From positions 32,001-96,000 of IMG/VR virus record IMGVR_UViG_3300048694_001252: 64,000 bases of DNA, one strand, 5' to 3'. The notes beneath the pieces were generated by a model, which saw only the letters and a list, made by a program, of their open reading frames with translations, was not told the origin of the DNA and did no database searches. Origin of the DNA: a virus. The translations under genes were made by a program, and so were the position numbers. Below are positions 4,422 to 53,279 of this stretch, piece by piece (within the stretch, counting starts at the first letter, position 1; the number at the start of each line of letters is the position of its first letter).

Positions 4422-4450
4422 ATTATAGTTGAAAACTACAGCACTGTCAA
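4422..4450 (-). promoter_or_regulatory. Consensus sigma70 promoter (early), likely leaderless
   Basis: TTGACA-17 nt-TATAAT on the minus strand, 6 nt before ATG 4415. Confidence 0.85.
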
Positions 4451-4457
4451 AATTGCT

Positions 4458-18961: not shown

Positions 18962-19710
18962 GCCCAAGACCCAATTGAGATGTTGGAACCACTGGCCCCT
19001 ATGGGATATATGCTGAAGAAACTACCCGCTTGCAAAGTATAAAATGCTGTGGGCGTATTTTGTGATTGTTGTGGTATAAACGTACCCCCGGCGTTGACAC
19101 TCACTGTCCCACGCAACCACAACGTCACAGTTTGGAAATTAGCTGATGCCATCAGAGCAGTCATGGCCGTGGTCGTTGAAAAAGCTGCGCTGGATGAACT
19201 ATCAACCAAAGGTATAGTTGAGGATGAATGTATACATTCAGCACAGTATAAAATATTATTCACCGTGGCTGTACCACCAAACCCAAAACTCACAATGTTG
19301 GCTGCACTGGCAGATCGAGAAAATACCATCTCGGCTTCCATGACATACACCGTGCCCGACGACAGTGTCACACCTACACCAAACACGCTATTGGTACCGG
19401 ACCCTACAGGATATGACCGGTTTGAATTGATACAAAAATACTGCATGCCCGGGATGATCCCCCTAAGAGCTCCGCTGGGAGTACCATAAAAACCTTGACC
19501 ATCGTATTCAATAGATCCAGCAGTGGCCGTGGTCAAGAGGTTACCTGAAGCAAAACTAAGTGGGGCGGCAGAGACATTGCCGGGATTGAGTACATTGCTG
19601 AGCAATGTGACATTGCCACTGGGCAATGTCAGTGTACCGGCTCCGGCCGCAGCTGGTGCTTGCAATGTGACCGATCCACTGGTATCTCCGGCTATGGTTA
19701 CTGCGCTCAC
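18958..19710 (-). CDS. Small fibre-associated protein, paralog 1 of 3
   Basis: Same motifs; a GTG start overlaps the upstream TGA. Confidence 0.65.
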
Positions 19711-22700
19711 AGAATCACCCATCTCTGTCCAGATGCCACAGTGACACTGACGTTGTTGGCTGTGGTAATAGGTCCGATACTAAGAGCGTTATAACCCGAT
19801 CCCACAGTATAGTTGGCTGTGATAGTGTTCGCTGTGAGTAGTAGTCCATTGGTTGCCAAGAACACCGAACTAGAAAATGTTCCCAATGAAGTCAAGTTGC
19901 CGCCGGTAATATTGCCTGTCACGCTGAGCGCATTACTGGTGGCGTTATAAACAAATCCTGCTGTTGAAACGTTGGCCAACTGGTCAACTCCAGCTGCTCC
20001 TACCATAACCGGATAAAGATTAGCGGTAGTGGTATTATTGGTAGCGTTGATTGTATTGGCCGATCCACCGCCCCCACCGCTAGGACCTTGGGCTCCTTGC
20101 GTACCCAAAGTACCTTGTGTGCCTGTGGCACCTTGCGTACCCGCCCCTGTAGCACCTTGCGTACCTGTACCTGTGGCACCTTGCGTACCTGTACCTGTGG
20201 CACCTTGTGCACCAGTGGCGCCCTGTGTACCTGCCCCTGTAGCACCTTGTGCTCCGGTCACGCCCTGAGCGCCTGTAGCGCCTTGCGCGCCAGTTGATCC
20301 TTGTGCGCCAGTTGTGCCTTGAGTTCCCGTGGTTCCTTGCGCACCTGTTACACCTTGAGCCCCGGTAGCGCCCTGCGCACCATCTGTGCCCTGTGCACCT
20401 ATTGTGCCCTGTGCACCTGTTGTGCCCTGTGCACCTGTGGTTCCTTGAGCTCCGGTTGTGCCTTGTGTGCCATTTGTTCCACTAGTACCCTGTGCACCTG
20501 TGGTGCCTTGAGCACCTGTTGTACCTTGTGTGCCATCCGTGCCTTGTGTACCTGTTGTGCCTTGCGCACCTGTTGTGCCCTGTGCACCTGTGGTGCCTTG
20601 AGCACCCGTGATGCCTTGTGTACCTGTGGTACCTGTTGTGCCTTGTGCGCCCGTAGCACCCTGTGCACCTGTGGTGCCTTGAGCACCTGTGGTGCCTTGT
20701 GTACCTGTGGTACCCGTGGTGCCTTGTGCGCCCGTAGCACCCTGTGCACCTGTTGTGCCTTGAGCACCAGTTGTGCCTTGAGCACCTGTTGTGCCTTGTG
20801 TACCTGTGGTGCCCGTTGTGCCTTGTGCACCCGTAGCGCCCTGTGCACCTGTGGTGCCTTGAGCACCTGTGGTGCCTTGAGCACCCGTGATGCCTTGTGT
20901 ACCTGTGGTACCTCTTGTGCCTTGCGCTCCAATCGTGCCTTGTACTCCCTGTGCACCTGTAGTGCCTTGTGCACCCGTGATGCCTTGCGCTCCAATCGTG
21001 CCTTGTACTCCCTGTGCACCTGTAGTGCCTTGTGCACCCGTGGTGCCTTGTGCACCTGTGGTGCCCTGTGTACCTGTTGTGCCTTGAGTGCCCGTGATGC
21101 CTTGCACGCCTTGTGCGCCTGTGGCACCTTGCGTACCGGCTGTGCCTTGAGCCCCGCTGACCAAGGCCACAAACAGAGTACTGTTATCAGCAAAATTGCT
21201 TGATCCGGTACCGCCTGATCCCAACAACATAACCGGATAGGTCCAGTAGTTGTTGGTAACAGTACTGGGTGTGCCATTTATCTGCCAGCGTTGATAATTG
21301 GCACTGTTGGCTCGATCCTGTATGGTTATTACTTCGGTATTCTGGATCAGAGCCAAGAATATGTCAATGTCCTGACCATCATCTGTGAGGTGATCAATAT
21401 TGATAGATGTGGCACTGGTCTGGGCCAAGTTATTCCAGATTACCTTGCCATCACCTGGATCACCACTGGTACTACCAGTATTGGCTCGATAATTGAATAG
21501 GTTGCTACTGCTACCTTGATTACCTTGCGTACCCTGTGTGCCTGTAGCACCCTGTGTGCCTTGAATGCCTTGAGTACCCGTGATGCCTTGCACGCCTTGT
21601 GCACCTGTGGTGCCTTGGGCACCTGTGATGCCTTGAGTGCCTTGTATACCCGTGGTTCCTTGTACACCTTGTGTGCCTGTAGTGCCTTGTGCACCCGTGG
21701 TGCCTTGTGCACCTGTTGTGCCCTGAGCACCTGTTGTGCCTTGTGTACCTAGAGTGCCTTGAGCACCTTGGGTGCCTTGTGCGCCTGTGGCGCCTTGTGC
21801 GCCTGTGGTACCTGTTGTGCCCTGAGTACCTGTGGTGCCTTGTGTGCCATTTGTTCCTGCAGTACCCTGTGTACCATCTGTGCCCTGTGCACCTGTTGTG
21901 CCCTGAGCACCTGTTGTGCCTTGTGTACCTGTTGTGCCTTGTGTACCTGTGGTGCCTTGTGTACCTGTGGTACCTGTTGTGCCTTGGGCTCCGGTTGTGC
22001 CTTGTGTGCCTGTGGTACCTTGTGTACCTGCGGTACCTTGTGAGCCAGTGGTACCTTGATTGCCCGCAGTGCCTTGCGTACCAGTTTGTCCTTGGATGCC
22101 CGTGGTGCCTTGAGCACCTGTGGTACCCTGTGCACCTGTTACCCCTTGAACGCCTTGTGTACCTGTAGTGCCTTGTGCACCCGTGGCGCCTTGAGCTCCG
22201 GTTATACCTTGTGTGCCATCCGTGCCTTGTGTACCTGTGGCACCTTGAGTACCTGTGATGCCTTGAGTACCTACAGTGCCTTGCACGCCTTGCAAGCCCA
22301 CAGTGCCTTGTGCACCCTGTACACCCTGTGTGCCGAGAATGCCTTGGAGACCCTGTGTACCTAGAGTACCTTGTACACCCTGAGTACCTACAGTTCCTTG
22401 CACACCTTGTGTGCCTTGAACACCCTGTGTGCCCGTAGTACCTTGTGAGCCAGTTGCGCCTTGAGCACCCACGGTGCCTTGGCTACCAATCACGCCCTGC
22501 GCACCTGTGACGCCTTGAGCACCTGTGGTACCTTGTGCGCCTGTGGTACCTTGAGTGCCTTGACTACCTGTGGTGCCTTGTGTGCCGTCTGTGCCCTGAC
22601 TACCGGTAGTGCCCTGTGTACCCGTTGTGCCTTGAGCACCTGTGACGCCTTGAGCACCTGTGACGCCTTGATTACCAATTATGCCCTGGAGACCTTGTGT

Positions 22701-25700
22701 GCCTGTAGTGCCCTGACTACCAGTAGTGCCCTGGATTCCCGTAGTACCTTGCGCACCTGTGACGCCTTGAGTGCCCGTGACACCTTGAGATCCCAAGATA
22801 CCCTGGATGCCTTGCGCACCTGTTGCACCTTGCGCACCCGTGACACCATTGACCAAGGCCACAAATAGATTAGTTTCGTCTGCAAAATTGCTTGATCCGG
22901 TACCGCCTGATCCCAACAACATAACCGGATAGGTCCAGTAGTTGTTGGGTACCGAAGTGGGTGTACCATTTACCTGCCAGCGTTGATAATTGGCACTGTT
23001 GGCTCGATCCTGTATGGTTATTACTTCGGTATTCTGGATCAATGCCAAGAATATGTCAATGTCCTGACCACCGTCGGTTAGATGACTGATATTGATTGAT
23101 GTGGCGTTGACTTGGGTGGCGTTGTTCCACAACAGATGACCGCTACCAGGATCACCACTGATTATGTTGGTATCTGACTTGTAATTGAATAGATTACTGC
23201 TAGAGCCAGTATTACCTTGGCTGCCTGTAGTGCCTTGTGTGCCAGTTGTGCCTTGTGTGCCCGTGGTACCTGTGACGCCTTGAGCGCCTGTTGAGCCTTG
23301 GGCACCTGCAATACCCTGTGCGCCCGTGGTACCTTGGCTTCCAGCTACCCCTTGTGTTCCTGTGGTGCCTTGAGCACCTGTGACGCCTTGCCCGCCCGTG
23401 ACACCTTGTGTGCCCTGTGTGCCTGTGACGCCTTGAGCGCCTGTGGTGCCTTGTGTGCCCGTAGCGCCTTGTGAGCCTGTTGTGCCCTGTGTGCCTGTGA
23501 CGCCTTGCGCTCCTGTGGTGCCTTGACCGCCAGTTGATCCTTGTGTGCCCGTAGTGCCCTGACTACCCGTAGTACCCTGAGCACCCGTAGTGCCTTGTGT
23601 ACCCGTAGTGCCCTGTACGCCCGTAGTGCCTTGTGCACCTGTTGAGCCTTGGGTACCCTCAACTCCTTGGATACCTTGAATACCTTCTACACCTTGAGCA
23701 CCTGTGACACCTTGGGTTCCAGTAACCCCTTGAACCCCCGTGGTGCCTTGTGCACCTTGTGCACCTGTAATGCCCTGAGTACCTACAGTACCTTGGGCAC
23801 CTGTTGAACCTTGGGTACCCGTGGCTCCTTGCACTCCCTGTGTGCCCGTAGTACCTTGTGCACCCGTGGTGCCTTGGCCTCCTGTCGCCCCTTGTGTGCC
23901 TTGTGTGCCTGTGGTACCTTGTACACCCTGTGTACCAGTTTGCCCTTGGACTCCTTGTGCTCCAGTAGTACCTTGCGAGCCTGTCACTCCTTGCGTACCC
24001 TGTGTACCTGTGACGCCTTGTGCGCCATCTGTGCCCTGTGCACCTGTGGTGCCTTGACCTCCGGTAGCACCTTGTGTACCCTGTGTACCTGTGGTGCCTT
24101 GTGTGCCCGTGATGCCTTGGCCGCCTGTGGCACCTTGACTACCTGTGGTGCCTTGTGTGCCTTGACTACCAGTAGATCCCTGCGCACCTGTGGTGCCCTG
24201 TGCGCCATCCACACCTTGTACACCTTGTGTACCAGTGGTACCTTGTACACCTTGGCCGCCTGTAACACCTTGTGTGCCTTGTGTACCTGTTGTGCCTTGA
24301 GCACCCGTAACGCCTTGGGTGCCTTGCGTACCGGTTTGTCCTTGAGTTCCTGTGGTGCCTTGTGCACCAGTGACGCCTTGAGTTCCTCCTACTCCCTGTA
24401 CACCTTGGCTGCCTACAATACCTTGGGTGCCTGTGGTTCCTTGTGCACCTGTAGTGCCCTGCGTACCTGTGGCGCCTTGTGTGCCTGTGGTACCTTGTGT
24501 ACCCGTAACGCCCTGTGCGCCATCTGTACCCTGAGCGCCTGTGATGCCTTGTGTGCCAGTTGTGCCCTGAGTGCCTGTGGTGCCCTGTGAGCCAGTTGTA
24601 CCTTGTGTGCCAGTTGTACCTTGTGTGCCAGTTGTACCTTGGGAGCCAGTTGTACCTTGGGAGCCGGTTGTACCTTGTGCGCCTGCGGGTCCGGGCGTAC
24701 CACCAAGATTTACCTCCCAAGATGTGTAACTACCGGTTCCCGTTGCTGTGGTAATATTGGCCACCATGGCGCCGGTACCACTGTCATAACTGGTAACAGT
24801 ACCATCCATGTAGTTGTTGGCATCGTAACTGATGATAATGTTCTGAGATGGGATATAGGCCAGGCTGGTTCCCACCGTGAGAGATTTAGATCCTGTGCCA
24901 ATGGATAGATTGGTTGAGCTAGTGGTTTGATAGGCATCGCCTGTGATGCCTTGTGATCCAATCGTGCCTTGTACACCCTGCGTACCTTGCGAGCCATTTG
25001 TTCCCTGTGTACCTGTAGTGCCTTGACTACCTACAGTACCTTGCGAACCAGTAGTGCCTTGGATACCTGTGATACCTTGGCCGCCTGTAACTCCCTGTGT
25101 ACCCTGTGTGCCTTGCGTACCTGTGACACCTTGACCGCCCACAGCACCTTGACTGCCTACCGCGCCCTGTACGCCCTGACCTCCCACTGCACCCTGTACA
25201 CCTTGAGTGCCCGTGATACCTTGAGTGCCCGTAGTGCCTTGTGCACCAGTAGATCCTTGAGCGCCAAGAACTCCCTGTGTGCCTTGTGTGCCAGTATTGC
25301 CTTGTGTGCCCGTAGTTCCTTGAGCACCTGTGGTGCCCTGTGTACCCGTAGAGCCTTGAGCTCCTTGACTACCTGTGGTTCCTTGCGAGCCCGCAGTACC
25401 CTGTGTGCCTGTTATGCCTTGTGAGCCAGTAGTGCCTTGTACACCTGTCGCGCCTTGCGAGCCCGTAGTGCCTTGTGTGCCAGTTGTACCCTGTGATCCA
25501 ATCGTGCCTTGTGTGCCTTGACTACCTGTGGTGCCTTGCGAGCCCGCAGTACCCTGTGTGCCTGTGGTGCCTTGAGCACCTGTGGTGCCTTGGCCGCCCG
25601 TGACACCTTGTGTGCCTTGAGTGCCCGTAACGCCCTGTGTGCCAGTTGTACCTTGTGCTCCAGTTTGTCCTTGACTACCGGTCACTCCCTGCGTACCCTG

Positions 25701-27083
25701 TGTGCCTGTGACGCCTTGCACTCCTGTAGTGCCTTGTGTGCCTGCGGTGCCCTGCGTACCTGTGGTGCCTTGTGATCCAACCGTACCTTGTGATCCGGTA
25801 GTGCCTTGTGTGCCCGTAGTGCCTTGTGCACCAACGGTGCCTTGCGATCCTAGGGTGCCTTGAACACCTTGACTGCCTACGATACCTTGTGCACCAGTCT
25901 GACCTTGCGTACCTGTGGTGCCTTGAGTACCCGTGATGCCTTGTGTACCCGTGGTGCCTTGTGTTCCCTGTGTGCCTGTAGTGCCTTGCGCACCCGTGAT
26001 GCCTTGAGCGCCTGTGGCTCCTTGCACACCTTGAATTCCAGTAGTACCTTGGCTGCCCACGCTACCTTGTACGCCTACCAGGCCTTGTGTGCCTACCACG
26101 CCTTGGAGACCTGTGGTTCCTTGCAAACCCTCAGTACCCTGTGTGCCCGTAGTGCCCTGAGTGCCCGTGGTACCCTGTGTGCCTGTGGTACCTTGCGCAC
26201 CTGTGGTGCCTTGAGTGCCCGTGGTACCCTGTGTGCCTGTGGTACCTTGTGCGCCATCTGTTCCCTGTGTGCCTACCACGCCCTGGATGCCTTGTGCACC
26301 CACGGTGCCTTGACTTCCGGCTACGCCCTGACTGCCTGTGGTACCTTGGGTGCCACTCACTATGGACTGGCCGTTGGCTAGATAGAATGCATCGCCTACG
26401 ATATTGCCGGCGGTTGTCAGTCCCTCGGCAGAAAACGTGGTCTGGCTACCAGTAGGATCACTGAGGATAAGGCTGTCGGCATTGGCCGAGATCTCAGCTG
26501 AACCCAGATATATGGTGCTGTTGGATAGATAGAGGTCGCGCCAACGAGCTGTGTCACTGCCTAGATCATAGGTGATGTTGGCTGCGGGTTCTAGATTGGC
26601 TGCGAATGTCACCTGGTTGCTGGCAAAAACAACCACATTACCGGTGCCGTTGATGCCCACTGTGATATTGCTGTCAGCTGCTAACACGCTCACGTTGGAA
26701 GTACCATTGGCGATGGCAGTACCATTGCCTGCACCGCCGCCGGAGATACCGGTTAGAAATCTACCATTGCCATAATAGTAGCGGCTGTAGGTGCTGTCAA
26801 AGTAGCGATTGGCCGATCCTAGGTCATAAACGGAATCTATATTGGGCACCACGGTACTGGCCATGGTCACATTGCCTATCCCGTTGCCGGCTAAGACCAG
26901 ATCTAGATTGGTTTCATTGGTACTGACACGATTGTTGGAGATCTGGACTTGGCTGTTGACCGGTCCCGCTGTCCATATATTGGCAAAATTGTTATTGACC
27001 GCTTGAAAAGCGTCGCGCAGACTTTCACCCGTGCCGTCATTTACCGCACCGATGTCTATTAGCTGTTGTGGTGTATCGCTCAT
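19707..27083 (-). CDS. Giant collagen-like fibre protein (2458 aa)
   Basis: N-terminal [17 protein letters not shown] (gp9/gp10-like attachment motif); long G-x-Q-G-x-T tracts interrupted by three globular inserts. Confidence 0.85.
20085..26355 (-). repeat. Degenerate 9/18-bp coding repeat (collagen Gly-X-Y)
   Basis: Repeated GGC ACC ACA GGT GCA CAA-type units in frame with 19707-27083. Confidence 0.9.
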
Positions 27084-27135: not shown

Positions 27136-30100
27136 CTAGACTCTGCCCACCACGATTTCAATCAGGCCCTGATCGCCCTCAAAGTTTTCCAGACTCTTGC
27201 CTATAATAGCACCAGTTGGGGGGTCTGCATCCGATCTGGCCGCGCCGTTGCCCGCGCTCACCATCATGTCGCCCTTGCGTATCACGCCCGTGACACGGGT
27301 TTTTACCCGCCCCTGCAGAGCCAGCAGTACCGGATGTTCAGCTGATATGCCCGCGTTCATGACGTGTCCCGGACCGGTACTGACCACACCGGCCACGGCT
27401 CGATCACCATCAACTGAACTGATAGTTACTTCGTGTGTGCCACCAAAGCAGAGCACAGTACCCGGTTCATAGTCTTGATCGGCGCTGTATTTTTCGGCCA
27501 AGTCGGCATATTGAGCTTGTGTTGATGTGACCTGTAGCGTGTTATTTGCTGCATCAAAACTGAATGCCGTGGCTGCTGTTCGAACTGAGGCTGTTTGGTT
27601 GCTACCGGCTGCGGCCACAAAAACCGGATAGAATGTACCAGTTGTGACCGCTGTGGCATTGATAGCCGTACTGGGTCCAGTGGAGCCCTGAGTGCCCGTG
27701 GAGCCCTGAGTGCCCGTGGAACCCTGAGCGCCTGTAGCACCTTGAGTACCAGTACCTGTGGTACCCTGTGCACCTGTTGTGCCTTGTGCACCTGTGGTGC
27801 CTTGTGTGCCATTTGTTCCTGCAGTACCCTGTGCACCTGTGGTGCCTTGAGCACCTGTGGTACCTTGTGTGCCATTTGTTCCTGCAGTACCCTGTGCACC
27901 TGTGGTGCCTTGAGCACCTGTAGTACCTTGTGTGCCATTTGTTCCTGCAGTACCCTGTGCACCTGTGGTGCCTTGTGCGCCATTTGTTCCACTAGTACCC
28001 TGTGCACCTGTGGTGCCTTGTGTGCCATTTGTTCCACTAGTACCCTGTGCACCTGTGGTGCCTTGGCCGCCGGTGGCACCTTGTGTGCCATTTGTTCCAC
28101 TAGTACCCTGTGCACCTGTAGCACCTTGGCCGCCAGTGGCACCTTGTGTGCCATTTGTTCCACTAGTACCCTGTGCACCTGTGGTGCCTTGAGTGCCAGT
28201 ACCTGTGGTGCCTTGTGCACCTGTGGTACCTTGTGTGCCATTTGTTCCACTAGTACCCTGTGCACCTGTGGTACCCTGTGCACCTGTGGTGCCTTGTGCG
28301 CCATTTGTTCCACTAGTACCCTGTGCACCTGTAGTGCCTTGTGTGCCATTTGTTCCACTAGTACCCTGTGCACCTGTGGTGCCTTGTGCACCTGTTGTAC
28401 CTTGAGCACCTGTGGTACCTTGTGTGCCATTTGTTCCACTAGTACCCTGTGCACCTGTGGTGCCTTGAGCACCTGTAGCACCTTGTGTGCCATTTGTTCC
28501 ATTAGTACCCTGTGCACCTGTGGTGCCTTGGCTACCAGTAGCACCTTGACTACCTGTGATACCTTGAGCACCTGTTGTTCCTTGAACACCTGAACCTGTA
28601 GTGCCTTGAGTACCTTGGGTACCCGTAGCTCCTTGGGTACCAGTAATTCCCTGTCGACCTTGAATACCTTGAGTGCCCTGTGCACCTGTGGTGCCTTGGC
28701 TACCAGTAGCACCTTGACTACCTGTGGTGCCTTGAGCACCTGTGGTGCCTTGAGAACCTGCACCTGTGGTGCCTTGTGGTCCCGGAGTTCCACCAAGATT
28801 TACTGACCAAGAACTATAAGTACCAGATCCAGTAGTACTAGTAATATTGGTTACTAGCTGTCCAGTACCGCTGTTATAACTGGTAACAGTTCCTGACATA
28901 TAATTGCTACCGTCATATGAGATAACAATATTTTGAGATGAGATATATGCTAAATTGGTACCAACAGTTATCGTTTGACTGCCAGTTGCAATAGTCAGAC
29001 TAGTTGAGCTAGTGGTTACATAAGCGTCGCCAGTTATACCTTGTGAACCTAGAATACCTTGCGATCCAGTGCTGCCTTGACTACCTGTAGCACCTTGGGT
29101 ACCTGTGGCTCCTTGGGTACCAGTAATTCCCTGTCGACCTTGAATACCTTGAGTGCCCTGTGCACCTGTAGTGCCTTGGCCACCAGTAGCGCCTTGACTA
29201 CCTGTAGCACCTTGACTACCTGTGATGCCTTGCGCACCTGTGATGCCTTGGCCGCCGGTGGCACCTTGTGTGCCATTTGTTCCACTGGTACCCTGTGCAC
29301 CTGTGGTGCCTTGTGTGCCATTTGTTCCACTGGTACCCTGTGCACCTGTGGTGCCTTGGCCACCAGTAGCGCCTTGACTACCTGTGATGCCTTGAGTACC
29401 TGCACCTGTGGTGCCTTGGCCACCAGTAGCGCCTTGGCCACCAGTAGCGCCTTGACTACCTGTGGTGCCTTGAGTACCTGCACCTGTGGTGCCTTGGCCA
29501 CCAGTAGCGCCTTGTGTTCCCAATAAACCTTGAACGCCTTGAGTGCCCATGGTTCCTTGGCTGCCTGTGACACCTTGAGCACCTGTGCTACCTTGTGTTC
29601 CTTGTATTCCGGTAGCTCCTTGAGGACCGGTTGTGCCTTGCGCACCAGATCCAGTACTGCCCTGTATGCCCGTGGCACCTTGAGCACCAGAAGCTTGCAC
29701 AGCCACACCATTGGCATATTGGAATCCTGCAGCAATGACGTTGCCAACTGCTGTGACTTTACCGCTAGAAAACACATTTCCGCTGGCAGAAATTGCACCA
29801 GTGGCATTGACATTTGCACCCTGGACATTGCCCGATGCTGATACTGTAACACCTTGCACCAGCGCGGCAGATATTAGATTACCACTGGTGACATTTCCCG
29901 AAACTGAAACTGTGGTCCCAGTATGGATCACTGCGTTGACATTGGCCCCACCAAGTATATTGGCACCAGTAATATTGCCCGTGACTGATAGTCCAGTACC
30001 GTTGAATATTGCTGCTTGAGATCCACCAATACCCACTGTGACCGCACCGCCGGCGCTGACCACCTTGACATTGCTGGTACCATTGGTTATTTGATTAACC

Positions 30101-30243
30101 GATACGTTGCCACCAATACTGGTATTTCCGTTGATGGTTAGATCCCCGGTGATGGTAGTTGCCCCAGCCGAAAGCTTGATCGAATCTGTAGGATCTATGG
30201 TTTCGATGGTGTAATTGCCGCTAACGCGCTTGATTGTGCTCAT
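27136..30243 (-). CDS. Collagen-like fibre protein with C-terminal intramolecular chaperone-like domain (1035 aa)
   Basis: Gly-X-Y tracts; C-terminal AQYADLAEKY...LALQGRV...IGKSLE, paralogous to 13980-17399. Confidence 0.85.
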   Translation of the reverse strand: MSTIKRVSGNYTIETIDPTDSIKLSAGATTITGDLTINGNTSIGGNVSVNQITNGTSNVKVVSAGGAVTVGIGGSQAAIFNGTGLSVTGNITGANILGGANVNAVIHTGTTVSVSGNVTSGNLISAALVQGVTVSASGNVQGANVNATGAISASGNVFSSGKVTAVGNVIAAGFQYANGVAVQASGAQGATGIQGSTGSGAQGTTGPQGATGIQGTQGSTGAQGVTGSQGTMGTQGVQGLLGTQGATGGQGTTGAGTQGTTGSQGATGGQGATGGQGTTGAGTQGITGSQGATGGQGTTGAQGTSGTNGTQGTTGAQGTSGTNGTQGATGGQGITGAQGITGSQGATGSQGATGGQGTTGAQGTQGIQGRQGITGTQGATGTQGATGSQGSTGSQGILGSQGITGDAYVTTSSTSLTIATGSQTITVGTNLAYISSQNIVISYDGSNYMSGTVTSYNSGTGQLVTNITSTTGSGTYSSWSVNLGGTPGPQGTTGAGSQGTTGAQGTTGSQGATGSQGTTGAQGTQGIQGRQGITGTQGATGTQGTQGTTGSGVQGTTGAQGITGSQGATGSQGTTGAQGTNGTNGTQGATGAQGTTGAQGTSGTNGTQGTTGAQGTTGAQGTTGAQGTSGTNGTQGTTGAQGTSGTNGAQGTTGAQGTTGAQGTSGTNGTQGTTGAQGTTGTGTQGTTGAQGTSGTNGTQGATGGQGATGAQGTSGTNGTQGATGGQGTTGAQGTSGTNGTQGTTGAQGTSGTNGAQGTTGAQGTAGTNGTQGTTGAQGTTGAQGTAGTNGTQGTTGAQGTTGAQGTAGTNGTQGTTGAQGTTGAQGTTGTGTQGATGAQGSTGTQGSTGTQGSTGPSTAINATAVTTGTFYPVFVAAAGSNQTASVRTAATAFSFDAANNTLQVTSTQAQYADLAEKYSADQDYEPGTVLCFGGTHEVTISSVDGDRAVAGVVSTGPGHVMNAGISAEHPVLLALQGRVKTRVTGVIRKGDMMVSAGNGAARSDADPPTGAIIGKSLENFEGDQGLIEIVVGRV
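27674..29690 (-). repeat. Degenerate collagen coding repeat including [15 protein letters not shown] units
   Basis: Near-identical tandem units visible in the DNA. Confidence 0.9.
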
Positions 30244-30831
30244 CTAAAGGTCCTTTGGATTATTTAGTCGTCGTTGTAGGTCTTCTAGATCCAGATGAAA
30301 CAGGTTAGCCAATCCATCAAATTGAGCAATATGCGCCGTGGTTGATCCACGCACTCGGACAAAACGTATCCGCGGGAAATCGCCGGCGATACGCAGAATC
30401 TGCCGTGTCCAATTACCGGTATAAGTGGGTTGACTGCTGCTTTTTTTGTAGAATTCGGTATCCGCATACACATTGTTGAACAGATCGCCCGGCATTGGCC
30501 CCATATCAAATCCCACGAGATATATGGGATCATGATGGGCCAGTGCAGCCAAACTCACGGCCAATGGACCTGAACTAAATCCAAAATACTGCTGGGGTAC
30601 AGACTTGGCACCTAGACCCGGAATAGGTTTACGAGTATAGAACTCGTATTGAGCCGAATAGCCACTCTCTTGTATGGCCGTGCTTATGGGTCTATCTGTA
30701 GACACCAATACTGTGGGTATAAATTCACGATAGAGAGCATTACAACCATAGACGGGACCATGTCTTTTTACCTGATCCAGATCCAGCCCCATGCGACTGC
30801 GCCCGTTACCCAACACAAAAGCCACACTCAT
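30244..30831 (-). CDS. DUF115/MptE-like or sialyltransferase-like nucleotide-binding protein
   Basis: AFVLGNGRSR, YGCNALYR, SSGPLA, IYLVGFD motifs. Confidence 0.6.
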   Translation of the reverse strand: MSVAFVLGNGRSRMGLDLDQVKRHGPVYGCNALYREFIPTVLVSTDRPISTAIQESGYSAQYEFYTRKPIPGLGAKSVPQQYFGFSSGPLAVSLAALAHHDPIYLVGFDMGPMPGDLFNNVYADTEFYKKSSSQPTYTGNWTRQILRIAGDFPRIRFVRVRGSTTAHIAQFDGLANLFHLDLEDLQRRLNNPKDL

Positions 30832-30863
30832 AAAAAATCCTCCCAGTAGTTATCTGGGAGGAT
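30832..30863 (-). terminator. Intrinsic terminator whose 3' arm contains the SD of the next gene
   Basis: 10-bp stem ATCCTCCCAG/CTGGGAGGAT with a U-run abutting ATG 30831. Confidence 0.75.
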
Positions 30864-30882
30864 CCTTTTGGTTTGACAAATG

Positions 30883-31710
30883 TTACGAAGTAAGGTTGTT
30901 GATCTGGGCCAATTGCAGACTACCATTCTGTGCGGAAGCACCATTGATAACTTCTGCACCAGACCATGTGACCGTACCTTCATCAGTGAAGAAGTTGGTG
31001 GGATAAAAGTTTTCGCTACTTTGTACATTGGTACCATAGTTGCTGTCAGCGTAGTTGCCATAGGTCATGCCATTCCAGTCACGTACCCATTTATTGGTGA
31101 TATAAGAAGCGTAAACAGCCGAACTATCACCCACAGAGTATGCCACGCTCATATATCCTGCGCTGGGAGAACCAGTGTTGGCCAGAACACAGATACCCAC
31201 ATTCCACACGGTACCGTTGTCAACAACAGCCGAACTACCACTGATAGTGGCTGTGAAAATATCACCCTGTGCTGCATTGGGGCTAGCACCAAACTGAGAC
31301 CAATCTGTACCGCTGGCACTGTTGATCATATAGGTATTACCGGCCACGATGTCCTCATCTTGTATGTCCGAGGCTTTGGCCACCAAGAATTTGTGTGCAC
31401 CCTTTTGGCGCAAGATGCGGCCCGATCCCGAACCAGTGCTAGAACCGCTGTTTAGTACGATATTGACCGTGCAGTTGATGTAGGGATTGGCAGCTGATCC
31501 CTGACCTTCTTGGAATCCACCCACCACGCCCAGATAATCCGAGGCGCTGAGTGTGCCAGCTGAGTTGTAAACCGGATCTGTCAGTGACCCAAAGTTGGGA
31601 TAACCCACATCCACATTGACCGCGGCTGCGGGTTGATTTATGGTACCATCGGCGTTGATCGTGATGCCCTGTGCAGGACCACGTTTGGAGATTTTGAGAG
31701 CTCGACCCAT
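30883..31710 (-). CDS. Putative virion structural protein (275 aa)
   Basis: Own late promoter, SD (AAGGA) and terminator; rich in G/S/N/A; RILRQKGAHKFLV motif. Confidence 0.6.
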   Translation of the reverse strand: MGRALKISKRGPAQGITINADGTINQPAAAVNVDVGYPNFGSLTDPVYNSAGTLSASDYLGVVGGFQEGQGSAANPYINCTVNIVLNSGSSTGSGSGRILRQKGAHKFLVAKASDIQDEDIVAGNTYMINSASGTDWSQFGASPNAAQGDIFTATISGSSAVVDNGTVWNVGICVLANTGSPSAGYMSVAYSVGDSSAVYASYITNKWVRDWNGMTYGNYADSNYGTNVQSSENFYPTNFFTDEGTVTWSGAEVINGASAQNGSLQLAQINNLTS

Positions 31711-31734
31711 TTTGTTTGTTCCTTGTGTAAAGTT

Positions 31735-31790
31735 GCGGGTTCTATCCCGCTACGCTGTTTGGGGAAACAGCATAAGCCGCATGATTACGG
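31735..31790 (-). promoter_or_regulatory. Structured 5' leader (three hairpins) after late promoter TAAATA at 31797-31802
   Basis: Stems CCGUA/UGCGG, UAUGCUGUUU/AAACAGCGUA and GCGGG/CCCGC; the G-U pairs work on the minus strand. Confidence 0.6.
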
Positions 31791-31844
31791 ACCAAGTATT
31801 TATGCAAAAACCAAATTATACCAGAGTACCGTAGTAAATACCCC

Positions 31845-32993
31845 GTGAATACTGCACAGCTAATTGAAACCGGCAATCAACATCGTGCTGATCGCCAATA
31901 TGATGCGGCTCTGGCCTGCTATGCCCAGGCCTTTGCCCAGGATCGCGGCTCATCTGCGGCCTTCAACAATTATGGCAATGTACTGCGTGAGATCGGGGAA
32001 CCTGCTGGGGCATTGCCGTTCTTGGAACGTGCCATCCAGCTCAATCCCCAGGATCCCATGGCACAGTTCAATCGATCCGTGTGCTTGCTGCTCTTGGGCG
32101 ACTATGAGCGCGGCTGGCCCGCATACGAGACCCGTTGGAACTACGAACATCTCGCGGGCACCTTGCCCCAGCTTGATCGACCGCGCTGGACCGGACAAGA
32201 TCTCCGGGATCGCTCTATACTGGTCATAGGCGAACAGGGACATGGTGACTGCATACAATTCAGTCGCTTCCTATGGAACCTACATGCCTTGGGCGCCCGC
32301 GTACATTTGCAGACCACCGATGGTTTGATACCGTTGTTCCAGAACAGCACCGTCATAGCATCGGTCTCGGCATACAGTAGTGCCATGCCCGAGGTTGATT
32401 ACTGGATACCCATCATGAGCATCCCGGCCGTGCTGGGCCTGACCCTGCAGAATCTACCGCGATCCATCAACTATATCACAGCACCCGACAATTTGTGCCA
32501 GCAATGGCGCCAACTGTTGGGCAACAAAACGCGATTGAGAGTAGGCTTGTCCTGGAGTGGCCGCCGGGACGCCTGGCTCAACACCCACAAAGGTATGCCA
32601 TTTGCTCAGGCTCTCACGCTGATACGATCAAACCCGCAATGCGAATGGATCAATCTCCAGATTGATGCCACCCCAGAAGAAACAGCGGCCTTGGCCGAGC
32701 TGGGTGTGCGCATGTTTCCCGGTACCATCACTGGATTCCATGATACTGCGGCCCTGCTGATGAACTTAGATGTGGTGCTGAGCGTGGATACTGCCATAGC
32801 GCATCTAGCTGGGGCGCTGGGTCGTCCCACCTGGGTCATGTTGCAGCGATTTGCCGTGGACTGGCGCTGGCTTCTAGCGCGATCAGATTCGCCCTGGTAT
32901 CCCACAGCACGCCTGTTCCGTCAGGAGAATTTTGATGACTGGTCCACGGTCATACGCGAAGTCAGTCAATATATCTCATGGTTCAAGGTATGA
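31845..32993 (+). CDS. TPR protein with GT9/heptosyltransferase-like domain
   Basis: TPR repeats, EQGHGDCIQFSRF, VGLSWSG, DVVLSVDTAIAHLAGALGRPTW, DWRW...DSPWYPT.RLFRQ. Confidence 0.85.
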   Translation: MNTAQLIETGNQHRADRQYDAALACYAQAFAQDRGSSAAFNNYGNVLREIGEPAGALPFLERAIQLNPQDPMAQFNRSVCLLLLGDYERGWPAYETRWNYEHLAGTLPQLDRPRWTGQDLRDRSILVIGEQGHGDCIQFSRFLWNLHALGARVHLQTTDGLIPLFQNSTVIASVSAYSSAMPEVDYWIPIMSIPAVLGLTLQNLPRSINYITAPDNLCQQWRQLLGNKTRLRVGLSWSGRRDAWLNTHKGMPFAQALTLIRSNPQCEWINLQIDATPEETAALAELGVRMFPGTITGFHDTAALLMNLDVVLSVDTAIAHLAGALGRPTWVMLQRFAVDWRWLLARSDSPWYPTARLFRQENFDDWSTVIREVSQYISWFKV

Positions 32994-33160
32994 GTCGACA
33001 ACCAACCAAACTGATCGCAGCCGGAGACATAGTGCGCAGACCCACAGACCGTGCGCAGGGCGTGGTATTGTCACGCCGGGGCATATGGACCGTGGAGGTC
33101 AAATGGCCCAGTGGTGCCAAGGAAATCGTGAAAATCTCGGAGCTGATCAGGGTGGCCTAG
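32990..33160 (+). CDS. Small SH3/KOW-like hypothetical protein (56 aa)
   Basis: ATGA overlap with the upstream stop; GDIV...GVV...VEVKW pattern. Confidence 0.5.
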   Translation: MSRQPTKLIAAGDIVRRPTDRAQGVVLSRRGIWTVEVKWPSGAKEIVKISELIRVA

Positions 33161-33161
33161 A
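33145..33161 (+). repeat. Left 17-bp direct repeat GATCAGGGTGGCCTAGA
   Basis: 16/17 identical to 33853-33869. Confidence 0.8.
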
Positions 33162-33174
33162 TTGTCCAATTTGT

Positions 33175-33204
33175 TTGTAAACCACCTGCAGAATCGTGCA
33201 TAAT
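33175..33204 (+). promoter_or_regulatory. Putative sigma70 promoter for the tRNA cassette
   Basis: TTGTAA-18 nt-CATAAT, 8 nt before the tRNA 5' end. Confidence 0.5.
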
Positions 33205-33212
33205 TACCATAT

Positions 33213-33286
33213 GCGCCCGAAGCTGATCGGATAGCCGGAGCCTCTAAAACTCCTGGTAGCGGGTTCGACTCCCGCCTGGCGCACCA
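33213..33286 (+). tRNA. Amber suppressor tRNA, anticodon CUA (33244-33246)
   Basis: Cloverleaf: acceptor GCGCCCG/CUGGCGC, D GCUG/UAGC, anticodon arm GGAGC-CUCUAAA-ACUCC, T arm GCGGG-UUCGACU-CCCGC, A73 and encoded CCA; 74 nt. Confidence 0.85.
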
Positions 33287-33304
33287 CTAACCAAGGAGAC
33301 TTTC

Positions 33305-33847
33305 ATGTCCTAGATTGAATATGCATGCCGAGATTGTGTTTTTCATTTCAACAAAAAACATCTAGAAGACCCCACCGTGCCCATGTGGGTAATCAAAACA
33401 CATGGTGAAACGTTCTATGTGAATCATGTCACATGCGAACTTGCCTGGTCAACCAAAGAAACCCCCGACAACACGCATACCAAAGGATCTCTCAAGATCC
33501 GTGAATGCCTGCTGACCATTGACGATGCCAATGAGGCCCGACTCACTGAACTCACAGTCTGGGATCGGGTTCGTCTGCGCAATCAGCGACTGGGTATAAC
33601 TCGAATCATATTTGCATACGGTAGTGATATCCATCGTGCGCTCAAGGCCAAGGAGTTCCGGCACAGCTCTTTCAAGAACGTGAGCGGAGGATGCGGTACC
33701 AGTTTTGTGGTCTGTGATCTCCTAGATCCAGCAGAGGCCACGTTTGCTGCTCTCAAATATCAGTTCAGAGTAATGAAACCCAATGAAGATTATTATCGAG
33801 CCTATGATCAACCCGGATCTCACATAGAGGAATCGGGAGAATACTGA
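33305..33847 (+). CDS. Hypothetical protein (180 aa) with in-frame TAG at codon 3; needs amber read-through
   Basis: AAGGAG at 33293-33298, then ATG TCC TAG ATT GAA TAT GCA TGC..., in frame with the listed 156-aa ORF at 33377. Confidence 0.75.
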
Positions 33848-33852
33848 GGACA

Positions 33853-33869
33853 GATCGGGGTGGCCTAGA
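33853..33869 (+). repeat. Right 17-bp direct repeat GATCGGGGTGGCCTAGA
   Basis: 16/17 identical to 33145-33161. Confidence 0.8.
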
Positions 33870-34560
33870 CTCCATATTGCCCACGTGAGGCATTGAAGTT
33901 TTGCAAGACTTCCCAGTCAGACAAGGATCTATTGTAGCAGAAAAACTGGCCTATACTGCCACTCAAGAGATTGCCATGATCGTAACTGGCTATGTCGGTG
34001 CTACCGTCGCCGGGATGCGGGTTGAGATTGTAGCTTGAACTGGCGTCAAATACACCGTTCACATAGGTTTTCATACTTACATAGGCTTCAAATGTCACGG
34101 CTATGTAATACCACTGACCTAGATCAAACGTGGCCACGGTGGGAAATGCATTGTAGTTGGCCCAGTCCTGGTGTCCGCTATAGAAACGGTTGCCACCTGA
34201 TCCAAAAGTGAAGTGACCACCTGCGAAACTACTCACTATGTTGTTGTTATAGCTGTAGCTGTTAAGACGCAACCACATGCTCTTGGTATACTGATTGTTG
34301 GGTAACACATTGGCAGTGAATCCCACACCGTACTGATTGGCGCCATTGAACGTGAAGTAGGAGGGTGTGCCTGAGGTCCACGTGGGCGAATTCTGCAAGC
34401 TAATATTGGCTCCAAAACCCGAAAGATCATACCAGGTGGTTCCAGATCCCGGATAGCTGGCAGGGTTATTGGCATCCAACCACATGGTCAGTCCTGTGGT
34501 GACATATCCAGGTTCATCCTGCAAGATTGTGCCTTGAATTTTGCCGCCTGAGATAATCAT
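33865..34560 (-). CDS. LamG/concanavalin A-like lectin domain protein
   Basis: LDANNPASYPGSGTTWYDLSG, WYYIAVTF, YVNG, YNRSLS..EVLQNFNA. Confidence 0.8.
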   Translation of the reverse strand: MIISGGKIQGTILQDEPGYVTTGLTMWLDANNPASYPGSGTTWYDLSGFGANISLQNSPTWTSGTPSYFTFNGANQYGVGFTANVLPNNQYTKSMWLRLNSYSYNNNIVSSFAGGHFTFGSGGNRFYSGHQDWANYNAFPTVATFDLGQWYYIAVTFEAYVSMKTYVNGVFDASSSYNLNPHPGDGSTDIASYDHGNLLSGSIGQFFCYNRSLSDWEVLQNFNASRGQYGV

Positions 34561-35276
34561 ATTCCAAACCTTGATCTATTGGCATTGAAGTTCTGTGACA
34601 CACCGCTGGTACCAATATCTGCGTTATAGATTCTTACAATGCTGAGTTTGCCGCCCCAGTATTGATAATTGTCCCAACGACTCATCAATCTGATGCCATT
34701 TCCACCACGCACTGAGTTGAAGCCGGGCCATGCACGACTGTTAACCAAGACGCCATTTACATACAGTCGCACGGTGGTGCCGTCCCAAGTGCCTGTGACC
34801 TGATACCAATTGCCTGTGATTAGTGTGACCTGCCCAGAATAAGTTGATGCCCAACCACCATTGAATGAACCAGACTGGAGGTAGGGAAAACTGTCTTCGG
34901 TGTTGCCCAAAGTAAAGTTGAGGGGATTGCCAAAATACATTTCTGTCACAATACAAGGAGATCCCGAGCCCATGTTGGTAGTGTCATGATACAACCAGGC
35001 TTCCACAGTCCAGTTTGAAAATGTTGATGCAAATGATGGTCCCTGAGCATACTGACTCAAAGCCGGATCAAACAATATACTACCGCCATTGCCAGCATCG
35101 TAGGCAGGGCTGTTGGCCAAAGTATATACCAATCCGCTTTCAGTATCAGTCCATGTTGAGCCTGAGCCTGGATAACTGGCAGGATTACCGGCGTCAAGAT
35201 TCAAGATCAAATTGGCCTGCACCACTCCGGGTGTTTGATATCTACCGCCGCGATAGGTTCCACTTCTTATGATCAT
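34557..35276 (-). CDS. LamG/concanavalin A-like lectin domain protein
   Basis: LDAGNPASYPGSGSTW, WYQVTGTWDG..VRLYVNG, QNFNANRSRFGI. Confidence 0.8.
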   Translation of the reverse strand: MIIRSGTYRGGRYQTPGVVQANLILNLDAGNPASYPGSGSTWTDTESGLVYTLANSPAYDAGNGGSILFDPALSQYAQGPSFASTFSNWTVEAWLYHDTTNMGSGSPCIVTEMYFGNPLNFTLGNTEDSFPYLQSGSFNGGWASTYSGQVTLITGNWYQVTGTWDGTTVRLYVNGVLVNSRAWPGFNSVRGGNGIRLMSRWDNYQYWGGKLSIVRIYNADIGTSGVSQNFNANRSRFGI

Positions 35277-35278
35277 AA

Positions 35279-36040
35279 TCAAATTCCGTAGGTAGTTTTC
35301 ACAGCATTGTAGTTTGCGGTGACTTGAGCTTGACTCAAAGCAATGTTGTAAGCTCTCATTTGATAATAGGTGCCAATAGCAACATCAGTTGGCGTGCCTG
35401 AGGTACCAGCATTAGGATGGCGAGAACCAAAGTTCAATCCTGTGGCGGCAGGGCTTTGTGCAGAATTATATCCAGTGGAGACTGAGTTTTGTAGCGTTCC
35501 GTTGATGTATAACTTGAGGCTAGGTGTAGCATCTACTGTGATAATAAATTGTCTAATAGCTCCTGAGTTGGCAGTGACATTATAAAGGTTGTATTTGCTG
35601 GTCACTCCACCTATAGAGATTTGAGTTGAGCTTGCCCAATACGCCATCCAACCAAGGCTCGCCAGGTAACTTTCATTGCCAAACAGTGTAGACCAAAAAC
35701 TCGTTGCAGTAATATTTGCAATAACTTCAACGGTGAACGGGACTGCCAAATTATATGATGTATTGGCTACCATGGCCATGTTTGTGGCTTGACTTGGTCC
35801 CAATATCAACCCTCCATTGTTGCTGGAGGTATAAGTAGCGGTTCCGGTGCCTGTTTTGTATATCGTACCATTGCGACCATTGCCCGACTCATCTAGCCAA
35901 TAGTTGAAGCTGGCAGTTGGTGCATTGAGATAGTTGATCTGTAGGCCTGATGTAGTGCCGGTCCAAGTATTATTGCTGGGGTACACAGGTGATGAAGCTG
36001 ATCCCACGTTGTTCATCATATTCATCATGATGCCAGTCAT
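35279..36040 (-). CDS. LamG/concanavalin A-like lectin domain protein
   Basis: WLDESGNGRNG, LKLYING, YNIALSQAQVTANYNA; start at the TAATG overlap. Confidence 0.75.
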   Translation of the reverse strand: MTGIMMNMMNNVGSASSPVYPSNNTWTGTTSGLQINYLNAPTASFNYWLDESGNGRNGTIYKTGTGTATYTSSNNGGLILGPSQATNMAMVANTSYNLAVPFTVEVIANITATSFWSTLFGNESYLASLGWMAYWASSTQISIGGVTSKYNLYNVTANSGAIRQFIITVDATPSLKLYINGTLQNSVSTGYNSAQSPAATGLNFGSRHPNAGTSGTPTDVAIGTYYQMRAYNIALSQAQVTANYNAVKTTYGI

Positions 36041-41592: not shown

Positions 41593-42366
41593 TTATGGGC
41601 TGTACCTATCTCCCCGGCCACCACCGCGGCGCGCACAATGATCACCGTGCCGGTGATACCAGCCACGAGCAATATCGCGATCACAGTGCGGGCAATGTAT
41701 CTTGACTCGTTTTTGGCCACGTTGCTTGGCTACTCTGCGTTCTACTACTTCTGGGTCTACTTTACGCCCCAACATCGCTTTTCTGAGTTTTTGTTTTTGT
41801 TCATCACTCATTGGAATACCTTTGTTGTGGGCTTGTTGTTTGCCTTTTTTGGCTTCGCTTATCTTACGGCGAGTTTCCTCTGATACCGCTTTACCATAAC
41901 GTCCATTTTTTTCTCCCTTGTGAGCTTCAGAGTTTTTGCGTCTATGATCTTCTGTTGCTATTTTGCCCTTATTCTTTCCAACATTTGATTGTCTAATTTT
42001 TTCAATTTGTTCTTTAGACTTAGGTTTACCTTTGTGAAACTCACTGATCTTACGACGACTCTCTTTAGTAGGTACAATATATCCCGCGACATTCTGATTG
42101 ATCCAACGATCATCTTCTAGCACGCGGCAGCGCCGTAACACTCTGGTTTCCCATGCTACTGCTTGTTCTCGAGTTTCAAACACCCGGCGTATCTCTACAT
42201 CAAAACTATCGCGGCCGGTCTCTTCAATCAACCGTTGTACTTTGGGACTGCTGGTAAAGTATTGGTGCCAGAGATCTTGCTCTGGTGGTAATTTGTTGGC
42301 ACTGCGTACCCCGTAATATACACGATTGGTAGGACGATGTCGGATTAGATATGTATAAGGTTTCAT
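41593..42366 (-). mobile_element. Free-standing GIY-YIG homing endonuclease with NUMOD3-type repeats (Seg-like)
   Basis: PYTYLI...YYGVR, YFTSS, conserved E and N; repeated SEETRRKISEA-type motifs; AT-rich 3' half; located between the capsid and fibre genes. Confidence 0.8.
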
Positions 42367-52420: not shown

Positions 52421-52840
52421 AGATCTCTTGCGAGATCTGTTGATTCGCTTGCGCTCATCAACTGTTTCCGAGCGGAGCGATTTTTAGGATCATCTAGATG
52501 GAGTGGTCACACTTGGCCCGCACAGGGCCAAGATTGATCTGCACATCATCTGAGTATCGCAGTCACCTAGCGTTAGAGCATTACAGAGGCGGTTGTCCGG
52601 TACCTCGAGCTCCGTCTTATTACAACGGCGGCCTGCATCAAATACGCTAACATTCCATGCAGACGTGCACGATCACTCGTGCGTCATTGGGCCTTGATAT
52701 CCTGTTCTAACAATCAAACCCCGGCGTTTTGGGATCCTCGTCCTGTGAAGGATAGTGATTGAGAGCTCCTGCGGCGGAGTCTTTGGTCCCGGTGATCCGA
52801 TAGATCCCGTTGTCATCAGTGCACGAATTTGGCCTGCACT
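52421..52840 (-). ncRNA. Putative large structured non-coding RNA of unrecognised family
   Basis: No ORF of 60 aa or more lies within it; about ten helices; GNRA loops (GUGA, GCAA twice) and G-U pairs on the minus strand; potential pseudoknot UUAGCG/CGCUAG. Confidence 0.65.
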
Positions 52841-53279
52841 AGCCCTGACCGCTTAGTTTGCCTCGGATATGACTGCCATGCACACGTACCTGGATGTGGC
52901 CGTTGTAGTAGCTGTCACTCTCTAACACACGCTGACTAAATTGTTCTCTTGCTTCGATGTAGCTGCATTCTGCCCGGCTTTTGCAATAATAAAGTATTTC
53001 GCGCTGGAAGTTTTGGTTGCCTAGTTTTGCGATGTCTTGGAGCAGTTGGGGGCTAGACCCCCAATAGTCTCGCCAATCACTCTCGACTTGTGTGCGTATT
53101 TTGCGTTTTCGTTTGTTGCCGTTTTTGAATTTGACTGTGCGTTGCCTGGTCTTGCGAAATTGAGCTAGTTTTTTGCCTATGTACTTGCGCTGCGTGATGA
53201 GATTGGTTATTTCATATACAAAACCCGCACAATCTAGGGGCAGTTGTTCTACTGGGTTGCCTTGATATAGCCATGTCAT
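52839..53279 (-). CDS. Compact GIY-YIG nuclease (catalytic domain only)
   Basis: GFVYEITNLITQRKYIGKK, YWGSS, REIL, SYIE, YYN; basic insert KFKNGNKRKRKIR; no NUMOD tail. Confidence 0.8.
   Translation of the reverse strand: MTWLYQGNPVEQLPLDCAGFVYEITNLITQRKYIGKKLAQFRKTRQRTVKFKNGNKRKRKIRTQVESDWRDYWGSSPQLLQDIAKLGNQNFQREILYYCKSRAECSYIEAREQFSQRVLESDSYYNGHIQVRVHGSHIRGKLSGQG

Follow-up and report, generated by a model that had tools for sequence, protein, structure and literature searches.

How did a short segment carrying a UAG-reading transfer RNA (tRNA) and a single gene come to lie between two copies of a 17-bp sequence, each of which includes the stop codon of a neighbouring gene? The locus belongs to a stretch of 64,000 nucleotides (nt), hereafter the window, which corresponds to bases 32001-96000 of the 115,246-bp IMG/VR virus record IMGVR_UViG_3300048694_001252 (CheckV completeness 33%). 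Judged by its Pfam marks, the source is an uncultured T4-like freshwater phage. The local gene order is A(-), B(+), C(+), tRNA(CUA), open reading frame (ORF) D, and then three (-) concanavalin-A-like lectin genes, the first of which is E. An earlier sequence-only reading had taken the tRNA and D for a cassette bounded by the repeats and inserted, or excisable, as a unit. The origin to which we incline, with moderate confidence, is a joint formed by general recombination between related T4-like phages, in which a flank was swapped and the end of C was duplicated. That the repeats mark a recombination joint of one non-site-specific form or another is held with considerably greater confidence.

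The direct repeats and their placement

The repeat pair was found where the sequence-only reading had placed it, with 16 of 17 positions identical and the two starts 708 bases apart (Table 1). Its assignment of the two CTAG motifs was also correct, the left one containing the TAG stop of C on the + strand and the right one the TAG stop of the convergent lectin gene E on the - strand; a gap of 17 bases separates the TGA of D from the stop codon of E. When up to three mismatches were allowed, the 17-mer had two matches only in the 64-kb window (0.19 expected; two matches reached in 0 of 100 shuffles). The pair alone is weak evidence, because a 16/17 pair within 1.5 kb occurred on average 0.4 times per genome in 30 Markov-1 random genomes of 115 kb, and its significance comes from its placement. 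When the 150 nt leading up to the tRNA were compared with 180 nt spanning the end of D, the best repeat shared by the two was 17 nt long; 1000 shuffles yielded none above 13. The 17-mer has neither promoter nor terminator content; a scan of the insert gave one promoter and zero + strand terminators.

Two further motifs were considered and dropped. The sequence-only reading had linked the left joint to the amber codon of D through a shared 9-mer, CCTAGATTG, which does occur at 33156 and 33309 and is found also at 41534(+) and 53238(-); with four occurrences in the window, in unrelated contexts, the functional link was given up and the match is treated as chance. TTGYCCAA, tried as a dispersed recombination motif, has 15 occurrences on the 115-kb record, mostly within genes.

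An empty allele in a related contig

The empty site predicted by the sequence-only reading exists. One IMG/VR contig, matched by searches with lectin E and with C and filed as L075, L079 and L085 (L079 below), has the order B-C><E and a single repeat copy, GATCCGGGTGGCCTAGACTCC, in the site ...GTGGCCTAGACTCC..., where C and E end on one CTAG. Its C gene (C', 3992-4165, +) and its lectin gene (4162-4857, -) overlap on the CTAG within a lone GATCCGGGTGGCCTAGA at 4150-4166, and both the tRNA and D are absent from this junction. By blastn, window positions 30190-33161 match L079 1209-4166 and window positions 33850-34503 match L079 4147-4800; on L079 these matches share 20 nt (4147-4166), and in the window 691 bp separate them. 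Because nucleotide identity to L079 is 70.5% on the left side of the joint (to 33161) and rises to 87.9% on the right (from 33850), the joint is, by this measure, also a boundary between blocks of differing ancestry. The encoded proteins are 73% (B), 76% (C) and 91% (E) identical at the amino acid (aa) level.

The 43 nt that precede the right copy agree with the end of the L079 C gene at 21 of 43 positions (background 10.8 ± 2.9; a fraction of 0.0009 reaches or exceeds this value), and the 10-mer CATAGAGGAA is among the agreeing positions, in register. A duplication longer than 17 nt was nevertheless rejected: the 43-nt stretch encodes the native acidic tail of D.

The junction in other freshwater runs

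The window was compared with four public freshwater runs (X4, X6, X7 and X8) as contigs of at least 90% likeness, a form of data in which rare forms do not show. The left joint is bridged by contigs in X4 (32901-33495) and X6 (32779-33495), with no alternative left flank, and the right joint by a contig in X8 (33790-33966). The occupied allele is real and not an assembly artefact, because contigs of other public runs bridge both joints. In X4, X6 and X7 contigs stop at 33853, the first base of the right repeat, and in X4 and X6 a different sequence runs on from 33854, for at least 197 and at least 255 letters, respectively. Depth in X6 is 49 for the contig with the 3' end of D and 24.5 for the E contig, a ratio of about two. 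The right flank is polymorphic in these runs and the left joint is not. Among the contigs of the four runs, in which rare empty or circular forms would be invisible, no joint bypasses the insert or closes it into a circle; a single joint is recorded, which skips 98 nt within D, in X8.

A variable junction among relatives

The relatives share a backbone, f4< f2< A< B> ... f3< f6< f7< f8<, with a convergent junction after A/B that is variously filled: by nothing, by tRNA-D, by f14, f50 or f73, or by lectins. The tRNA-D pair stands directly after B in L021, L028 and L038, where the promoter overlaps the last codons of B, and directly after A in the L006 group, L035 and L037; in all, it follows A/B in at least 12 distinct related loci. 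Judged by gene order across these loci, the pair is old at this junction and has been gained, lost and re-neighboured in more than one way.

Analogous flanking repeats, which the sequence-only reading had proposed as a check at other cassette loci, did not appear: at 23 other distinct tRNA-ORF loci the best repeats were 8-12 nt long, against shuffled maxima of 11-14. Nor did repeats define the endpoints of loss, for L054 and L063 are devoid of tRNA and D with endpoints unrelated to any repeat. That reading had named two observations as telling against it, namely the cassette in relatives without repeats and its loss at other endpoints, and both were made, in more distant relatives. What survives of its proposal of movement as a unit is the discrete indel, given the single-copy site in L079; the part that found no support is the use of the repeats as marks of a cassette-specific movement.

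A metagenome scan with lectin E for closer alleles returned seven loci of 46-58% identity, none with C, D or a tRNA. In L088, B and a lectin gene directly adjoin (B><lectin). Four-base palindromic double stops are common where convergent genes meet at this junction, as TTAA (B/f14) or CTAG (C'/lectin), at L052 4037-4040, L065 2953-2956 and L079 4162-4165.

A proposed history of the joint

We infer the order of events, the enzymes and the reversibility as follows. In one lineage B, C, the promoter, tRNA(CUA) and ORF D would already have been in place; in a second, C' and E would have abutted on one CTAG, as they do in L079 today. A crossover at the boundary between gene modules may then have fused the end of D with C' at a position 17 nt short of its stop, and E would have brought along a stub of its old neighbour C', the left copy being the working end of C and the right copy a useless stub. 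A flank swap at that point would account for the repeat, for the identity step and for a parental strain that diverges at that very base. The phage's own recombination system, to which the gp46/47-like Rad50/Mre11 pair in the window would belong, should suffice, and a recombinase of the module would be unneeded. The repeats, once in place, could allow the module to be lost precisely, which would leave a site of the L079 type and release a circle of 708 bp, and, in mixed infections, to be gained with equal precision. We prefer such a junction between blocks to the jump of a cassette because of the identity step, the second right flank that sets in at one base, and the presence of tRNA-D after A/B in relatives.

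Several observations weigh against this history. The empty allele is a single one and comes from a distant relative (B 73% at the aa level), and therefore gain cannot be polarised against loss. The right-hand match to L079 consists of gene E alone (654 nt), the genes beyond being different, and E itself may be the moved piece. The known part of the second right flank is a 30-nt consensus, which aligns best to the left joint of the window (GACCAGGAT---CTAGATGGCCCACTTGGT against GATCAGGGTGGCCTAGATTGTCCAATTTGT; shuffle p = 0.001, a value for that target among three tried); this likeness could fit a tandem or circle-type joint, in which a further C-type stub with the beginning of a promoter region would follow D. 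The same 30-mer has zero exact matches in IMG/VR and in the contig collection (genome_contigs), and the record and the loci fetched contain none even when 6-7 mismatches are allowed; the 30-mer at the end of D likewise has zero matches in IMG/VR and the contig collection, searches in which near-identical records may have been masked. Finally, the D tree places the window with L003/L004/L006/L018/L002/L005 (support 96/89) and the tree of the backbone gene A places it with L021/L028/L038/L035/L054/L075 (support 100/99), a discordance that would fit an imported cassette, i.e. insertion. As proof of import the discordance was set aside: a concordant placement of the window's D, which sits on a long branch, was not rejected by the approximately unbiased (AU) test (p = 0.106), and the group had been named after the tree was seen.

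Alternative explanations

Our second choice, unlikely yet deserving of serious weight, is that an intact C/E junction in the lineage of the window itself took up the whole module in a single step, through two illegitimate joins staggered by 17-20 nt or the re-integration of a small circle; the repeat would then be a target duplication, and the resulting structure would be identical. Collapsing the repeats gives the exact L079 site, the likeness of the promoter region to those of other tRNA-ORF loci starts at TTGTCCAA (33162), the first base past the left repeat, and the window has different kin in the D tree and in the A tree; for repeat-flanked cassettes of T4-type phages, circles of comparable size are also reported (PMC2839356). 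Insertion predicts, however, that both flanks diverge equally from L079, and the values seen are 70% and 88%. It would also make it a coincidence that the second right flank of X4 and X6 breaks at the duplication's inner edge; no other locus shows a duplication, and the support it might draw from the trees is limited by the AU result.

Distinctly less probable, in our estimate, is that the promoter, tRNA(CUA) and amber-locked ORF constitute a non-autonomous mobile module that spreads through the T4-like phages of freshwater as a circle or tandem of about 0.7 kb, with duplicated gene ends serving as portable homology. The second right flank would then be the tandem or circle-type joint to which its alignment with the left joint could point.

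Loss from an ancestral occupied form, by recombination or replication slippage between pre-existing repeats in the L079 lineage, is considered quite improbable. It gains from the distribution of tRNA-D after A/B, which makes the pair old there, and from the fact that losses occur, L054 and L063 having kept the promoter and the conserved element described below without tRNA and D; T4 deletions that arise between short direct repeats offer a precedent. The origin of a non-coding right copy would go unexplained, however; that copy is still 16/17 identical where the flanks of L079 have diverged by 12-30%, and the losses in L054 and L063 are not bounded by repeats.

There is very little probability, as we see it, that the module is a non-autonomous site-specific element whose 17-mer serves as att-like core or target for an integrase, transposase or homing endonuclease with its gene elsewhere on the phage genome. 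A clean single-copy empty site is what such an element would leave, the window holds two SegE-like GIY-YIG genes, and SegB of T4 reportedly promotes inheritance of the T4 tRNA region (PMC2330249). The insert ends, TTGTCC...GGACA, share an inverted match of 5 bp and no longer terminal inverted repeat, and this match is within chance. Against such an element, integrase and transposase families were absent from 47 window ORFs and 7 local proteins (two ORFs of more than 1500 aa being left out), and the segment holds no tyrosine or serine recombinase, D being its only ORF and belonging to no Pfam or PHROG family, so that the segment is integrase-free as had been claimed. The exact 17-mer occurs at five loci in IMG/VR, of which the L079 contig is the only related one, and it is absent from the other tRNA-ORF loci fetched, where L021 and L038 have only look-alikes at the start of D with four mismatches. 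No flanking repeat above the null, of the kind expected as the target-site duplication of a transposon or miniature inverted-repeat transposable element, was seen at the 23 other distinct loci. No homing endonuclease gene lies in or adjoins the module, the nearest GIY-YIG genes (41596-42366 and 52842-53279) being 8 and 19 kb distant. The evidence argues against a self-moving, autonomous element.

That the repeats match by chance, helped by both genes ending in CTAG and unconnected to the indel, is scarcely credible in spite of the random expectation of 0.4 such pairs per 115 kb, since the shared 17 nt exceed every flank shuffle and the L079 blastn matches overlap on exactly that stretch; the empty allele refutes it.

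The cargo of the segment

The segment that is present here and absent in L079 is, as far as its sequence features allow, a self-contained expression unit consisting of a promoter, a UAG-reading tRNA and one gene predicted to need this tRNA (Table 1).

Table 1. Coordinates of the repeats, the segment between them and the adjoining genes in the window.
Feature	Position	Strand	Description
Gene A	30883-31710	-	Backbone gene
Gene B	31845..32993	+	Backbone gene on the upstream side of the variable junction; 382-aa protein, TPR plus glycosyltransferase-9-like
Gene C	32990..33160	+	Small ORF of 56 aa; ATG overlaps the stop of B; TAG stop 33158-33160
Left repeat copy, GATCAGGGTGGCCTAGA	33145..33161	+	Native 3' end of C: last five codons (..I R V A stop) with TAG
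Segment absent in L079	33162..33852	+	691 bp; 708 bp with one repeat copy
Candidate sigma70-type promoter, TTGTAA-18-CATAAT	33175..33204	+	Consensus scan; ends 8 nt before the tRNA
tRNA, anticodon CUA (predicted to read UAG)	33213..33286	+	Encoded CCA end; ARAGORN; Rfam tRNA 45 bits, gathering score 29
Putative Shine-Dalgarno sequence, AAGGAGA	33293..33299	+	Read from the sequence; 5 nt before the ATG of ORF D
ORF D	33305..33847	+	180 codons; ATG TCC TAG (33311-33313), then open to TGA 33845-33847
Right repeat copy, GATCGGGGTGGCCTAGA	33853..33869	+	Non-coding remnant of the end of a C-type gene; includes the stop of E (CTA, 33865-33867)
Gene E	33865..34560	-	Protein of 231 aa with a concanavalin-A-like lectin domain; heads a row of three paralogues

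The tRNA(CUA) is the sole tRNA that ARAGORN finds on the 115-kb record, and its cloverleaf with a CUA anticodon has the features of an amber suppressor tRNA, for which reading of UAG is predicted. A TTGAC-type -35 and a TATAAT-type -10 element at an equal distance from the tRNA are present in most of the 26 distinct upstream regions compared. The tRNAs of the relatives (25 further distinct ones) are all CUA, with divergent stem sequences and ends in ACCA or GCCA, and AGCCTCTAAAACT around the anticodon is common to many of them. In the Rfam alignment of the window's tRNA (33213-33283) two non-standard pairs are seen, in the acceptor stem and at the base of the anticodon stem.

The ATG of D, preceded by the Shine-Dalgarno sequence, follows the end of the tRNA by 19 bases, and codon 3 of D is TAG. 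A standard-code ORF call misses or shortens D, which is listed from 33377 only. AAGGA or AGGAG precedes the ATG of D in relatives too. D has 50 relatives in IMG/VR (53-77% identity), and TAG stands directly before a conserved I-E-Y/F motif in all 47 whose 5' end is on the locus; an alignment of 21 sequences has a mean column identity of 66%. From these comparisons D is a member of a conserved, function-unassigned family with a UAG near its start. A same-strand tRNA(CUA) was called by ARAGORN at 37 of the 50 D loci, and 7 of the 13 others have less than 250 nt of upstream sequence. The tRNA would open D by readthrough of UAG, and D, beside the tRNA, is the only ORF on this phage for which such a need is known here from the sequence; TAG is an ordinary stop for 48 of 154 long ORFs on the record, including C and E, which flank the module.

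The structure model of D is confident (predicted local distance difference test score, pLDDT, 87.5). No recombinase or nuclease fold was recognised in the model by Foldseek (best E 0.037), the N-terminal half being barely tested; the best VIA-align match (Z 5.3, root-mean-square deviation 3.2, 72 aligned) suggests an ACT/RRM-like ferredoxin fold for residues 97-171, in the C-terminal half. On the family searches and these two comparisons D is probably not a recombinase. The terminal branch of the window's D measures 0.55 changes per column, the median being 0.13, and its acidic tail is 6-9 residues shorter than those of its nearest relatives. Cultured phages have only a short form of D, which matches residues 7-86. 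In Rhizobium phage RHph_I1_18 (L094; MN988519.1, 1501-1707) an unannotated homologue of the N-terminal half, 59% identical across residues 7-75, precedes an annotated tRNA-Pyl(cta) by 30 nt.

Other small elements were noted near the pair in relatives. A conserved element of about 70 nt, AAGGTCGTTAAAC...CCTGGATTGACC.GCCTGGATGT, occurs at L021 3876-3990, L054 5880-6000 and L063 6170-6290; it lies behind the tRNA in L021 and carries a GCCCCGAC/GTTGGGGC hairpin in L054 and L063. The latter two loci retain the promoter and this element, the tRNA being gone exactly end to end and D being gone as well. In L012 (4570-4640) and L029 (3500-3570) a small RNA-like gene near D has a tRNA/tmRNA-like 3' end (T arm + ..TGGTCCACCA); the L029 copy is preceded by a TTGACA...TATATACT promoter, and ARAGORN calls neither copy. 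Tandem tRNA relics near D, considered for these two loci, were rejected, the extra T-arm matches belonging to a different small tRNA-like RNA.

Surroundings of the locus

The T4-like marks in the window (Pfam) are the Gp23 capsid protein, the Gp20 portal, gp15, a prohead protease and the gp46/47-like Rad50/Mre11 pair; a blastn search of 31800-35300 against cultured phages gave zero matches. Gene B matches TPR_16 (5.6e-11) and Glyco_transf_9 (6e-05) in Pfam and has 23 relatives in IMG/VR, at 61-65% identity. Relatives of C are limited to L079 (76%) and L080 (70%, with a different 3' end). Gene E matches Pfam Laminin_G_3 (9e-16) and a PHROG virion structural protein (8e-18).

The two SegE-like GIY-YIG homing-endonuclease genes of the window are both on the - strand, and the first also has NUMOD3 motifs; one of the two adjoins the major capsid gene. 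A full-length match to the Rfam Polynucleobacter-1 RNA (RF01718; 91 bits, gathering score 37) at 52708-52844 (-) lies directly downstream of the SegE-like gene at 52842-53279 (-). Two collagen-like Gly-X-Y repeat genes, at 19710-27083 (-) and 27139-30243 (-), comprise 2458 and 1035 codons, the second with a Pfam Collagen match of 7e-70; of the 1659 short direct-repeat pairs on the record, almost all are due to these two genes.

Comparison with known systems

The case belongs with the known modular shuffling of T4-type phages, and its cargo is unusual. In the rII region of T4, deletions and duplications arise between short direct repeats. As in those deletions, the endpoints here lie in direct repeats of about 10-20 bp, of which one copy remains; unlike them, laboratory mutations within one genome, the joint described here has flanks of different ancestry. 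ORFan cassettes flanked by PeSL, a promoter-terminator motif, are reportedly found in the hyperplastic regions of T4-type phages, as work by Comeau et al. from 2014 is said to describe.

According to the accessible part of one study (Arbiol et al. 2010, PMC2839356), close relatives among T4-type phages differ by the deletion, insertion or replacement of PeSL-flanked ORFan cassettes, which are also released as circles of 400-1400 bp. As far as that part of the source goes, the present case resembles them in several respects: a T4-like phage, a small module with its own strong sigma70-type promoter that is absent in a relative keeping one repeat copy, a predicted 708-bp circle within the size range of the mini-circles, and general recombination assumed with no dedicated recombinase. 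Presence and absence of the PeSL type, with one chimeric repeat copy at the empty site, was found in L079 (4150-4166). Flanks of the PeSL type, in which a motif of promoter and stem-loop terminator recurs many times across the genome, were not found, the 17-mer having two copies in the window at up to three mismatches. Set against the same part of that study, the repeat here is a one-off duplicated coding end of a neighbour gene and not a dispersed promoter-terminator motif, and circles were seen there, whereas none appeared in the contigs here.

SegB drives preferred inheritance of the T4 tRNA gene region, as stated in the part of that report at hand (PMC2330249). The two cases have in common a tRNA-bearing segment of a T4-like phage and its spread to relatives in mixed infection, which for the present segment is a proposal, and Seg-type GIY-YIG genes are present in the window; they differ, on the same partial account, in that no endonuclease gene lies inside or adjoins the module here and in that homing leaves no target duplication. 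In the literature covered, which excludes subscription journals, no paper was found on this tRNA-ORF pair or on a repeat-bounded tRNA cassette in T4-like phages.

With its occupied and empty alleles both available, the locus is a clear case from nature of how a small accessory module at a gene boundary is gained, lost or given new neighbours in T4-like phages without a dedicated recombinase, and of how a stub of a neighbour gene, carried along, becomes a short direct repeat. The cargo adds interest, consisting of a promoter, a UAG-reading tRNA and the sole gene predicted to depend on it, whereas elsewhere in this phage UAG serves as a stop. Comparable, to the extent that the accessible part of the preprint by Borges et al. 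(10.1101/2021.08.26.457843) describes them, are the suppressor tRNAs encoded by phages with recoded stop codons, in that a phage CUA tRNA is combined with a phage gene dependent on it; that part does not describe the tRNA-gene unit as a cassette. Unlike in the recoded phages as they are presented there, TAG is an ordinary stop here (48/154 long ORFs). If such units do travel between phages, they could seed stop-codon recoding.

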